Assembly: GCA_043823825.1 (NCBI GenBank)
Contig: JBDRTU010000026.1
Location: 43-64,042, forward strand
Direction of reading: 5' to 3'
DNA length: 64,000 nucleotides
Source of the DNA: Patescibacteria group bacterium
GTDB taxonomy: Bacteria; Patescibacteriota; Patescibacteriia; Veblenbacterales; UBA10138
How positions within the stretch are numbered: position 1 is the stretch's first letter; every line of letters starts with the position of its first letter. Of this stretch, positions 14,037-64,000 are shown in pieces. The translations under genes and the position numbers were made by a program. The notes beneath the pieces were generated by a model. The model was not told the DNA's origin and did no database searches. It worked only from the letters and a program-made list of their open reading frames with translations.

Positions 14037-14115
14037 AAGTTACATTATACCATTTATGGTCATTATTTCTAATCAATTAACCTTAGTCTGATTTGTAATT
14101 TTGAGTACAAAAAAA

Positions 14116-14565
14116 GCTAAGTAGACCAATAAGCCGAATTCTGTCTGACCCCGCCGTGTGGCGGGGGAAGCGATTATCTATCTGGGCCGCCTCTCACGAG
14201 GCGAGCTCTAGCTACCAACCCGTCCGTCTCGCCAATTTCTTGGCGGACGAGACCTACTTGGTATTGCACCGGGTAGAGTTTGCCTAGCCCCCGACGTCAC
14301 CGTCGGGGCTGGTGGGCTCTTACATTTTACGCTGAAGCGTTTTATTCCGCCCGTGGCGGACCCACCGTTTCACCTCTTACCTCGCTCTGCCAGATGGCTG
14401 AGCGGGCGAGTCTATTTTCTGTTGCACTTGTCCTACGACCCACTTACGCGGATCAGCGGCTGCTGTTAGCAGTTACCCTCCGCCTATGCGGCGGACACAT
14501 GGTGTTCGGACTTTCCTCCCCCATCTAATAATTAGATGAGAGCAATCGCATAAGTCTACTTAGCT
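14116..14565 (-). ncRNA. rnpB: RNase P RNA (bacterial type A)
   Basis: The reverse complement contains GGGAGGAAAGTCCGAACAC (P4 5' strand) and ACAGAATTCGGCTTAT (P4 3' strand, matching ACAGAACCCGGCTTAT), plus GGTAAGAGGTGAAACGGTGGG and GTGCAACAGAAA. The P1 stem is agctaagtagac/gtctacttagct at the two ends. This GC-rich island overlaps a spurious 82-aa plus-strand ORF in the track. Confidence 0.8.
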
Positions 14566-25870: not shown

Positions 25871-25873
25871 CTT

Positions 25874-25890
25874 CTTATTCGCGCGAATTA
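25874..25890. repeat. Palindrome ttattcgcgcgaattag in the sufC-sufB intergenic spacer
   Basis: Core 12-bp perfect palindrome ATTCGCGCGAAT, identical to the copy at 63686-63697. Confidence 0.55.
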
Positions 25891-25918
25891 GAAAGTAGTT
25901 CTATAGTTAAATTAAGGG

Positions 25919-62297: not shown

Positions 62298-62315
62298 CTC
62301 ATTCGCTCGAATGAG
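62298..62315. repeat. Palindrome ctcattcg-ct-cgaatgag immediately downstream of the arsR-like gene
   Basis: Perfect 8-bp arms. The reverse-complement variant occurs at 62617-62632, and related palindromes at 25874 and 63684. Confidence 0.6.
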
Positions 62316-62322
62316 GTCTAAA

Positions 62323-62589
62323 TCAAATATAACTGATAACAGATTTAGATACTCGCGACAGCTCCGAAGATAAGGAATAAAATACTAGTTTACTTTTTTG
62401 CTCTGATTCTAAAATATCAGCACCTTTTAAGACAGTAAGATGTTTAGAGGTGGCTTTAAATGATAGTTTGATGGCGTCAGCTATATCACCTACTGGTGCT
62501 GGCTGATGAGATTTTAGATATTTGATAATAGCCAGACGGCGTTTATTAGCTAAAGCTTTTAGATTTCTTTCTAACTCCTTCATAAACAT
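62323..62589 (-). CDS. ArsR/SmtB-family transcriptional regulator
   Basis: 88 aa with a wHTH motif: LKALANKRRLAIIKYL ... VGDIADAIKLSFKATSKHLTVLKGADIL. Confidence 0.75.
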   Translation of the reverse strand: MFMKELERNLKALANKRRLAIIKYLKSHQPAPVGDIADAIKLSFKATSKHLTVLKGADILESEQKSKLVFYSLSSELSRVSKSVISYI

Positions 62590-62616
62590 ATTATAGCACC
62601 ATTATTATCATTCAAA

Positions 62617-62632
62617 CATTCGAGCGAATGAG
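62617..62632. promoter_or_regulatory. Palindromic candidate operator cattcg-ag-cgaatg upstream of the arsR-like gene
   Basis: Located 28 nt upstream of the arsR start codon. It is an inverted copy of the palindrome at 62298-62315. Confidence 0.4.
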
Positions 62633-62759
62633 GGCAAGATAAGGGGGAGGTGGGAGTATGGAGTATGATGGGGAAAGATGATCTGCTGCAAAGATGATTT
62701 TTTTGTTTAGGCAGCCAAAATTACTGAATTTATTAAGTAATAAATTCATGAATTAATTT

Positions 62760-62798
62760 ATGCCTGCCCGCCTTGGGCGGGAATTAATTACTGAATTT
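62760..62798. repeat. 39-nt direct repeat, copy A
   Basis: atgcctgcccgccttgggcgggaattaattactgaattt. The last 19 nt are identical to copy B at 63733-63771. It overlaps the 3' end of a minus-strand ORF. Confidence 0.55.
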
Positions 62799-62809
62799 CC
62801 TTGATAATT

Positions 62810-63045
62810 TCATTTTAGCGCAAAACCACCCAGCAACACTAGGTAGCTGGTGGAAATGAAGCTCCATAGCCTTATGGCCATGGTATCCTTCATTTCTTCG
62901 GCGGAATCCGCCGTAGCACCCTCCTTTACTTTTCGAGCTACGGAGGATCCACCCCGCATTCATCCACGGGCTTACGTCCGTGGTCTTCATGCGAAGGCGG
63001 ATAAAAAAGACCCGCCAGAGGTCCTTGGGACATAGCGGGTTAGGT
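62810..63045. other. GC-rich, hairpin-dense segment that is a candidate structured RNA. The overlapping short ORFs on both strands are probably artefacts.
   Basis: Consecutive stems: ccagc/gctgg, gaaatgaag/cttcatttc (9 bp), cggcgg-att-ccgccg and ccacgg-N8-ccgtgg. The two overlapping ORFs (68 and 61 aa) have RNA-like odd composition. Confidence 0.3.
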
Positions 63046-63533
63046 TAACGAGGGGGATTTAGCGTGTTGGCTATTGGCTTTTCGAGATTTACCTCGAAGG
63101 CTTCTGCAAGAGCTAACAAGTCTCTTCCCCACGGATTAGTCTTCCTGGGTGGATAAAGATGAGGAGACAACCCAGGACGATAAATCTGTTTACTCTGAGC
63201 CACTAATTCGGCTTCTATCTCTCTGCGTTGCCTTATAATTTCCTCTATAATAAACTTAATGGCTTCCCTCTGAAAGAGGTCGCAATTCTTGGCCAGTTGT
63301 TTGTATATAGTCAGACAATCTTCAAATGAAGAAGAGTTATCAATCGGTGCTTTATCTCCATAATCAAAACCAGTCGCATAGGGAATAAGATAATTAGTAA
63401 CCGACGTAAGGTGATCTAGAAACTCTCCCATGGGACCCATGCCGCCTAACGGTGGACAGGGAATTCTACGTAGAGCATATACAGTCATGGCTATGGCCTT
63501 ATCTATGTATAAAGATAAAAAATTCATCCTCAC
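63045..63533 (-). CDS. Hypothetical protein
   Basis: 162-aa ORF with no recognised family. It lies between the two 39-nt direct repeats. Confidence 0.4.
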   Translation of the reverse strand: MRMNFLSLYIDKAIAMTVYALRRIPCPPLGGMGPMGEFLDHLTSVTNYLIPYATGFDYGDKAPIDNSSSFEDCLTIYKQLAKNCDLFQREAIKFIIEEIIRQRREIEAELVAQSKQIYRPGLSPHLYPPRKTNPWGRDLLALAEAFEVNLEKPIANTLNPPR

Positions 63534-63683
63534 TCCTTTTATTAGTTGTCAAGGTAATTATTTTATTTTCATTTCATCTTAGATTAAAAAAGATATATTT
63601 GTCAATACTTATAAATAAAAACTCGCTCCTCTAGCCAAATTCGCCAGCGGAGTTATTTTATTTTTTAATCTTCAACTATTCTC

Positions 63684-63700
63684 CTATTCGCGCGAATTAG
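63684..63700. repeat. Palindrome ctattcgcgcgaattag upstream of ORF 63045..63533
   Basis: Same 17-nt sequence as at 25874-25890. Confidence 0.55.
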
Positions 63701-63732
63701 AGCCGGGTTAGTTATGCATAATACTTAGAATT

Positions 63733-63771
63733 GATGCCCGTCCGTCTCTGGAGGGAATTAATTACTGAATT
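63733..63771. repeat. 39-nt direct repeat, copy B
   Basis: atgcccgtccgtctctggagggaattaattactgaattt. It overlaps the 3' end of ORF 63762..63992. Confidence 0.55.
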
Positions 63772-63992
63772 TTTTCATTAACTGCTTTGATATACCTACA
63801 ATAATCACAATCCTCCCTTGACTTAGGCAACACCTCTGCCTCCAAACACTTTATGGCATCTCTTATAGCCCCCTCCACCCAACTATCATCCCCTTTATAA
63901 GGAATTATCTTAATATCAAACTCTAGCTTGCCATCAAAGGCCTCCTTATCAGTTTTGCCATTACAATACACAAAATAACCGATCTTGGACAC
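63762..63992 (-). CDS. Hypothetical small Cys-containing protein (may be truncated by the window edge)
   Basis: 76 aa with CDYC and other Cys. The start lies 8 nt from the window end. Confidence 0.3.
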   Translation of the reverse strand: MSKIGYFVYCNGKTDKEAFDGKLEFDIKIIPYKGDDSWVEGAIRDAIKCLEAEVLPKSREDCDYCRYIKAVNEKIQ

Positions 63993-64000
63993 TTTAAAGC

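Follow-up and report, generated by a model that had tools for sequence, protein, structure and literature searches.

The stretch of DNA analysed here (the window) comprises 64,000 nucleotides (nt) of a Patescibacteria metagenome-assembled genome and covers almost all of a contig of 64,203 nt, which stops about 200 nt past the window. A near-identical Logan contig (L001) adds 241 nt beyond it. An earlier reading of the letters alone, here called the original prediction, had marked positions 62700–63800 as a cassette-like region in which direct repeats enclose a GC-rich, structured segment and a hypothetical gene. Our analysis centres on this GC-rich segment, which most probably is a gene-less element of 145 nt (62856–63000, minus strand) in which the left and right ends of an insertion sequence (IS) of the IS200/IS605 family are joined.

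Read along the minus strand, the region starts with the 3' part of a gene for a PD-(D/E)XK nuclease (63762–64000; about 251 amino acids (aa), running off the window), whose stop codon lies at 63762–63764. Repeat copy A (63729–63772), a conserved 28-nt motif (63675–63702) and a promoter-like site (63576–63605) lead to orf160 (63045–63527), a gene of an uncharacterised family, and to its terminator hairpin (63010–63040). The GC-rich element comes next, followed by a second terminator-like hairpin (62820–62852), repeat copy B (62755–62798), an AT-rich inverted repeat (62719–62754) and a gene for an ArsR-family regulator (62323–62589). The order closes with a serpin gene. The flagged region is a mosaic of unrelated parts and not one cassette. 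Its earlier framing as a cassette merges independent components; the suspicion that non-coding and mobile DNA is involved was right.

The segment has a GC content of 0.52–0.55, as compared to about 0.38 for the window, and on either strand it folds with a z-score of about -5.5 relative to shuffled sequence, so the GC-rich, hairpin-dense stretch of the original prediction is real. Relatives were found with a bait for which the stop-free six-frame translations of positions 62770–63010 were joined as one protein query. The search yielded 11 'hypothetical proteins' sharing the peptides EASTGLRPWYPSFLRRNPPKHPP... and MKPPRAYARGILHFFGGIRRSTLL.... Eight contigs were retrieved for these database proteins and examined at the DNA level, where they are 85–86% identical to the window segment over about 155 nt. 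Altogether there are ten copies of the element, namely the one in the window and nine in eight unrelated metagenome contigs with GC contents of 0.45–0.58. The copies range in size from about 145 to 230 nt and are interspersed, with unrelated flanks and neighbours such as an EamA transporter, a HEAT-repeat protein, ATP synthase b and an inositol monophosphatase. A single contig of 938 nt (L110) carries two copies. These lie at 187–427 and 647–848 in the same orientation, and their central loops are enlarged by internal duplications of element sequence (GCCTTCGCAG..., GCTTCGGCGGA...).

From the element family we built an alignment (A4) and a covariance model (R1) and derived patterns for the left end (TTTATCCGCCTTCGCRGAAGACCAYGG) and the right end (GGGTGCTTCGGCGGATT...GAAGGATACC...GGCTTCAT). 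Scanning the window with R1 gave one copy with a score of 161.9 bits. Five pattern scans of IMG/VR revealed no copy of the element (the ten loci fitting the last pattern are chance matches according to the covariance model), and a blastn search of phage and plasmid collections gave no match to it either.

The conserved stretch has sharp boundaries. It opens with CCGCCTTCGC exactly 3' of a TTTAT (TTTAT, then CCGCC) and closes exactly with GGCTTCAT, that is, after TTCAT. Between these limits the copies are separated by indels of 1 and 2 nt and by insertions of tens of bases, which break the frame, and CCCTCC/GGAGGG encloses a central loop of variable length (17 to about 100 nt). Because of these small indels and the variable loop length, the GC-rich segment is non-coding. 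As had been suspected from the overlapping open reading frames (ORFs) on both strands, these are translated non-coding DNA, which is evident from the frame-breaking indels and from compensated substitutions in two stems. We therefore rejected a protein-coding reading: the indels break the frame, and a Pfam search with the ORFs of the segment gave no match. An Rfam scan of positions 62800–63060 with E-values up to 1 matched no family, and an ARAGORN search for tRNA and tmRNA found nothing on the segment. The variable central loop is the place where the genes or the cargo of a parent IS would sit.

At least 11 'hypothetical proteins' (P0171–P0181, 164–474 aa) are wholly or partly translations of the element in two frames, and some of them are fused to real genes, for instance to a 4HBT thioesterase (P0172) and a pilin-like protein (P0178). 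At positions 1583–2009 of contig L107, a 4HBT thioesterase ORF covers only positions 4–85 of the 122 positions of the Pfam profile, and the match stops at the right end of the element.

The assignment of the element to the IS200/IS605 family is mainly based on its ends. All ten copies contain hairpins of the type CCAYGGNC-GTAA-GNCCRTGG near both termini. The two lie on one strand and point in the same direction. In the window, the left subterminal hairpin CCACGGAC-GTAA-GCCCGTGG is located at 62964–62983, with the tetranucleotide AAGA (62984–62987) before it and AT after it. The right hairpin CCATGGCC-ATAA-GGCTATGG is located at 62864–62883; it is preceded by GATA (62884–62887) and followed by AG...TTCAT. 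From the foot of the hairpin to the boundary the distance is 16–17 nt on the left and 8–9 nt on the right. Compensatory changes are confined to these two hairpins (6 pairs, 14 cells) and affect two of the eight pairs of the left and four of the eight pairs of the right hairpin. The covariation score is above that of all 500 shuffles and all slid controls.

The motif abutting the 5' end of the element, TTTAT at 63001–63005, would be the transposon-adjacent motif (TAM), i.e. the left cleavage and target site. TTAT is present at this position in all copies and the full TTTAT in nine, the tenth having CTTAT. The final bases of the element, TTCAT at 62856–62860, would be the transposon-encoded motif (TEM) with the right cleavage site; they are invariant (10/10 copies), and conservation ends right after them. 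The right flanks are related neither to the left-flank motif nor to one another; there is no target duplication. Terminal inverted repeats are absent as well, since the ends CCGCCTTCGC... and ...GGCTTCAT are non-complementary. The copies are too short for a transposase gene.

These features were compared with those of IS608 from Helicobacter pylori as given in two publications (PMC3201880, PMC5934647). According to these, the left site of IS608, TTAC, lies outside the element, 19 nt left of the left hairpin, and is read by the guide AAAG. The right site, TCAA, closes the element no more than 10 nt beyond the right hairpin and is read by GAAT. Base -4 of the site pairs with base 2 of the guide and base -3 with base 1, whereas A at -2 is unpaired (PMC5934647, PMC3201880). 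From both published pairs of site and guide we infer a further pairing of base -1 with guide base 4, which they imply. By this rule, the guides AAGA and GATA predict sites of the form TT.T and TC.T, and the sites seen are TTAT and TCAT, each with an A at -2. All three pairs of guide and site are present at both ends in nine of the ten copies, and five of the six in the remaining copy. Directly 3' of the hairpin feet are the dinucleotides AT (left) and AG (right), as in IS608, where they form base triplets (PMC3201880).

Thus, the element and IS608, as described in these sources, share subterminal hairpins on one strand, an external left and a terminal right site, and four-base guides 5' of each hairpin foot that obey the same positional pairing rule. 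The hairpin distances (16–17 and 8–9 nt here, 19 and 10 nt in IS608) are of the same order. The sites themselves are different, TTAT/TCAT (pentamers TTTAT/TTCAT) here as opposed to TTAC/TCAA, and so are the guides, AAGA/GATA as opposed to AAAG/GAAT. Unlike those of IS608, the hairpins of the element are perfect and have no extrahelical T, and the element contains neither tnpA nor tnpB. A close match of the motifs is found in ISGst2, which has TTTAT as TAM and TTCAC as TEM and for which gene-less relatives have been described (PMC10055086): the TAM is identical and the TEM, TTCAT here, nearly so. This likeness is one of motifs and not of compared end sequences, and ISGst2, in contrast to the element, encodes TnpB and an omega RNA.

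Palindrome-associated transposable elements (PATEs) are defined by near-terminal palindromes, the absence of terminal inverted repeats and of a target duplication, and a length too short for a transposase (PMC3119063). The element in the window resembles the PATEs of Haloquadratum walsbyi (PMC3119063) and the PATE-like elements of Geobacillus stearothermophilus (PMC10055086) in that it is short and gene-less, lacks terminal inverted repeats and a target duplication, has near-terminal palindromes akin to IS605-type ends, and can be read as what is left when an IS loses its core and its ends fuse. It differs from them in belonging to another sequence family and in its hosts, which are uncultured bacteria, here a Patescibacteria genome. 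Its length of 145 nt is near the lower limit of the PATE size range. In addition, no parent IS was found for it, and there is one copy in 64 kb. The sequence architecture of the ends places the element in the IS200/IS605 family, and we conclude, with a probability of roughly 80%, that the GC-rich segment is a 145-nt PATE consisting of fused left and right ends of an IS of this family, located in the terminator of orf160. The PATE family is previously unannotated and belongs to the known IS200/IS605 class. As for the mobile or cassette-type insertion proposed originally, the mobile part of the proposal is retained; the unit, however, is the 145-nt element inside the 1-kb block, and its ends are unrelated to the repeats.

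Several observations weigh against this assignment. Neither a full-length parent element with tnpA or tnpB nor an empty site in a related genome was found. There is a single copy in the window, and R1 gives no hit in 916 kb of further loci, most of them from Patescibacteria. In one copy (L111) a mutation in the guide breaks the code. With their perfect 8-bp stems and GNRA-like GTAA loops, the hairpins at the ends lack the extrahelical T of IS608; these hairpins, the G-T or G-U wobbles and the strongly conserved unpaired stretches would suit a function as RNA, too. The truncated thioesterase in contig L107 is not made whole when the element is cut out precisely, and this locus was not counted as evidence. 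The repeats around the block are without an integrase within 11 kb. Finally, no Y1 transposase (HUH...Y motif) or TnpB-like gene was found among the window ORFs tested. For this reason mobility at this locus is presumptive; the window copy is non-autonomous and possibly immobile in this genome.

The TTTAT at 63005–63001 belongs to the U-tract (63001–63009) of the orf160 terminator, as judged by the fold and by the homologs of this gene, and the U-tract is split by the element. In-silico removal of the element leaves GGCGGGTCTTTTTTAT directly followed by TTCC, like a normal terminator tail; the tails after two orf160 homologs are CTTTTATTTTTCG (L082) and TCTTTTCTTTTTC (L084). Removal of the element restores the U-tract of the terminator, which is indirect evidence for insertion at this site. 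On the plus strand the GC skew is negative throughout the window, and the minus strand encodes 44 of the 57 large ORFs. The top strand of the element, which is the minus strand, would therefore be on the G-rich strand, the presumed lagging-strand template. This lends weak support to the assignment, because it is the orientation favoured by the IS200/IS605 family (PMC5027513).

Based on IS608 and the ISGst elements we propose the following mode of transposition. The element would move as single-stranded DNA. A Y1 (HUH) transposase TnpA, presumably supplied in trans from elsewhere, would bind both subterminal hairpins on the top strand and cleave 3' of TTTAT on the left and 3' of TTCAT on the right. 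Each cleavage site would be recognised through base pairing to the tetranucleotide that adjoins the hairpin foot on its 5' side (AAGA for the left end, GATA for the right). The excised strand circle could then re-insert 3' of another TTTAT with no target duplication. In this way, the present copy probably landed in the TTTAT of the intrinsic orf160 terminator, inside its U-tract.

The gene in front of the element, orf160, had been listed as an ORF of 162 aa, and this ORF is present. Its true start is most likely ATG 63527, giving a protein of 160 aa, as indicated by the family alignment and a Shine-Dalgarno sequence AAAGGAG. NCBI annotates it as a protein of 147 aa (ABIJ81_01690) with a start 13 codons downstream of the supported one. 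A word-indexed protein search with orf160 retrieved only itself. A HMMER scan of 1.84 billion representatives yielded about 50 homologs of the same length with 30–46% identity, which share the blocks NIDRAIVMTQYDLRGF and WGK.VLALAEAF in the alignment. The protein is predicted to be a helical bundle: the AlphaFold (AF2) model, which is a confident one (pLDDT 84.8), has five helices. No relative of orf160 was found in Pfam, NCBIfam, PHROG or PDB, the sole profile match in the family being a far sub-threshold one to CobF in the homolog P0126.

At 22 metagenome loci (L082–L103) the homologs stand alone, with housekeeping genes (ribosomal proteins, RuvC, tRNA synthetases, a tRNA gene) as neighbours. 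Every homolog comes with a promoter-like sequence of its own, and these loci contain neither the GC-rich element nor flanking repeats. Conversely, the contigs bearing copies of the element are without orf160. In the window, the promoter-like site TTGACA-18-TAAGAT 5' of orf160 (63576–63605, minus strand) agrees with the consensus in 10 of 12 positions; it is a candidate by this match alone. A terminator hairpin GACCCGCCAUGUCC...GGACCUCUGGCGGG with a U-run is common to the closest homologs (L082–L085). As the homologs stand alone, with promoter-like sequences of their own and without element or repeats, orf160 is a real, independent, monocistronic gene with its own putative promoter. The occurrence of its homologs among housekeeping genes, without repeats or element, does not support the cassette of the original prediction. 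Genes of the family are often GC-richer than their contigs (0.55 versus 0.43 in L086, 0.56 versus 0.41 in L087), and the homologs occupy different genomic places, such as directly after a tRNA gene (L099) or directly before one (L087). The GC excess, the varied places and the shared terminator hairpin hint that the orf160 gene itself moves between genomes.

The direct repeats bracket the orf160 unit. Described initially as 39 nt long, they are real and extend over 44 nt (62755–62798 and 63729–63772) with 84% identity and an identical core of 20 nt, GGGAATTAATTACTGAATTT; a BLAST comparison of the copies within the window gives an E-value of 2e-7. A third copy is absent from the 64 kb. The 13-mer AATTACTGAATTT, whose recurrence had been seen near 62721, is indeed found again at 62719 and, inverted, at 62742–62754. 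Both are part of the AT-rich inverted repeat with arms of 17 nt at 62719–62754, and all four mismatch-free occurrences of AATT(AC/CA)TGAATTT are in the flagged region. The GC-rich hairpin ascribed to the repeats holds for one copy only. Copy B constitutes the 5' arm and the tip of a composite hairpin of about 65 nt with a perfect 6-bp GC tip and a z-score of about -3.5 on both strands. At copy A the hairpin is weak, and the region does not fold better than shuffled sequences.

The repeats had also been placed at the ends of small ORFs. On the minus strand, however, it is the nuclease gene of about 251 aa that reaches into copy A, which supplies its three final codons and its stop codon ahead of the weak hairpin. 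The 68-aa ORF terminating in copy B reads through the non-coding element and is spurious. The C-terminus of the nuclease, which is partly supplied by copy A, has the length typical of its family (homologs in PF12705, 60–88% identical). Upstream of the core, copy B can be aligned by eye to the 3' end of the nuclease gene with one in-frame gap of 9 nt. This suggests that copy B may be a relic of a 3' end of the same type. None of the other nine copies of the element has the 44-nt repeats, so repeats and element are separate. The two repeats would be duplicates of the nuclease gene's 3' end together with the hairpin behind it, and may have originated from an old site-specific or homology-driven insertion of the orf160 unit downstream of this gene or from a local duplication.

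A tentative explanation of the repeats, which is compatible with the PATE reading of the element, is that the 0.97-kb block integrated as a cassette by recombination within the 20-nt core at the 3' end of the nuclease gene, which would make copy A the attL and copy B the attR site. The identical core between diverged arms (flanks about 70% identical) is the usual look of att sites, and as in elements that integrate into 3' ends of genes, the frame is intact at copy A and the C-terminus is of normal length. Copy B keeps the full, stable hairpin, and joining at the core would give the nuclease gene a stronger hairpin than it has now. In addition, the repeat is confined to this locus, and the homologs of orf160 occur at differing places and are GC-richer than their surroundings. 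In contrast to such att systems, however, the bracketed DNA is shorter than 1 kb, there is no known empty site, and neither the block itself nor the 11 kb known on one side contains an integrase. Homologs of orf160 elsewhere are without flanking repeats, and no related genome with this locus was found. Furthermore, the 28-nt palindrome motif, which would be inside the cassette, stands immediately behind the nuclease gene in contig L105, which suggests that this adjacency is ancestral. We consider such an integration possible and doubtful.

The original prediction had alternatively considered a novel small-RNA locus. A new structured small-RNA gene, acting in trans or as a 3'-UTR element, with the GNRA-capped hairpins as its RNA structure, would account for the strong fold (z about -5.5) and the compensated changes in the stems, several G-U pairs being valid on the minus strand only. 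It would also account for the GNRA-like GUAA loops and the highly conserved unpaired stretches. Moreover, in the window the segment is placed between two terminator-like hairpins on the transcribed strand, and as no Rfam family matches, such an RNA would be new. The second of these hairpins, CCACCAGC...GCTGGGTGG followed by UUUU (62820–62852, minus strand; assigned by its fold), is outside the conserved element, and the other copies of the element have not kept it. No promoter or terminator is common to the copies, their orientation with respect to the neighbours is co-oriented, convergent or divergent, and the boundaries coincide with a TAM/TEM pair and an IS608-type code of guides and sites at both ends, which is unexpected for an RNA gene. 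A free-standing small-RNA gene is unlikely for these reasons. The two copies within one contig of 938 nt and the absence from 916 kb of related loci point in the same direction.

A role as RNA is nevertheless conceivable for a mobile element, because conservation is strong from end to end in contigs that are otherwise unrelated, and because the element lies on the transcribed strand. It might act in trans as a minimal scaffold for TnpB or IscB, similar to an omega RNA, with the 3' flank as guide, or it might be a 3'-UTR module. Separately, the 0.97-kb block might form a mini-cassette that needs no recombinase and carries the orf160 family from one Patescibacteria genome to another. We regard these ideas as speculative and improbable.

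Two further readings are hardly tenable. The first, a type I toxin mRNA with a small hydrophobic peptide MKDTMAIRLWSFISTSYLVLLGGFALK and a sequestered ribosome binding site, could draw on a minus-strand ORF of 27–49 aa with a hydrophobic tail and on a GGAGG paired with an upstream CCUCC, but it is refuted by the lack of conservation of this ORF among the copies: in the other nine the frame enters unrelated flanks and gives no conserved or hydrophobic peptide, the hydrophobic tail in the window stems from the non-conserved flanking hairpin, and the GGAGG is 27 nt from the AUG. The second, integron attC sites with the genes between them as integron cassettes, would fit the minus-strand order, in which each repeat follows an ORF of the same orientation, and the long imperfect palindrome of copy B, but neither copy contains an RYYYAAC or GTTRRRY core site, copy A forms no palindrome, orf160 has its own promoter-like site and terminator, and there is no integrase nearby. 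By eye, the repeats fit neither the core sites of a Xer/dif-like site nor, as a second pair of IS200/IS605 ends, the rule for guides and cleavage sites. K-turn and loop-E readings of the internal loops, likewise judged by eye, do not fit the consensus.

The nuclease, which is Cas4/RecB-like and whose gene reaches into L001 (positions 1–480), is unusually conserved, with 60–88% identity to thousands of proteins from Patescibacteria and from contigs labelled as other phyla. Despite this high protein identity, no synteny is conserved around its gene. A comparison by way of the nuclease gene, covering 80 GTDB loci plus the two nearest metagenome contigs, revealed neither orf160 nor the element, and no ArsR-family or serpin gene.

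Between the nuclease gene and orf160, the conserved 28-nt motif CTCTAATTCGCGCGAATAGGAGAATAGT (63675–63702, minus strand) contains the palindrome ATTCGCGCGAAT (63686–63697), in agreement with the further palindrome copy noted earlier between the repeats. The motif is a probable operator. In contig L105, which encodes a nuclease homolog with 82% identity, it recurs with one mismatch at about 1430–1460 and starts at the stop codon. Since it directly follows the stop codon there, its position next to the nuclease gene is argued to be ancestral. In L105 the motif precedes a GIY-YIG-like ORF. A relative of the motif is located at 25873–25892 of the window. A pattern count places the palindrome ATTCGNNCGAAT with GAAT(A/G) behind it at four sites in the window (62301–62312, 62618–62629, 63686–63697 and 25877–25888), compared with 0.02 expected. 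Two of the copies, ATTCGCTCGAAT (62301) and ATTCGAGCGAAT (62618), flank the ArsR-family gene (Pfam HTH_20 and HTH_5), so that gene and palindromes together span 62301–62629 on the minus strand. One of the two is just upstream of the promoter-like TTGAAT...TATAAT of this gene. The third copy is upstream of orf160, and the fourth lies between sufC and sufB. From this placement and the copy in L105, the palindromes look like the operator of a helix-turn-helix regulator, possibly the adjacent ArsR protein of 88 aa.

Some other features of the window were also observed. In the 4 kb searched, the sole Rfam match is a sub-threshold one to the Bacillus small RNA ncr952 at 62646–62788 on the plus strand (26.6 bits versus a gathering score of 100, E-value 0.0045). 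It ends in the hairpin of copy B and is probably due to chance. The stretch is associated with a strong Shine-Dalgarno-like GGGGGAGGTG at about 62643, followed by an ORF of 7 codons. Overlapping near-palindromes AATTCCTGAATTAATGAATTA at 1616–1637 are related to the palindrome AATTCATGAATT at 62743–62754. An RNase P RNA of bacterial class A was identified at 14114–14562 on the minus strand (198 bits). With 449 nt, as compared to 367 positions of the model, it suggests insertions.

The analysis explains a set of at least 11 spurious database proteins, and alignment A4 and model R1 could serve for annotation, for the discovery of the parent IS and its TnpA or TnpB, and for the avoidance of spurious ORF calls. 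The element is a clean natural example of the IS200/IS605 code of guides and cleavage sites, with the pairs TTTAT-AAGA and TTCAT-GATA. A GC-rich structured island in an AT-rich genome of the candidate phyla radiation need not be a new RNA gene.

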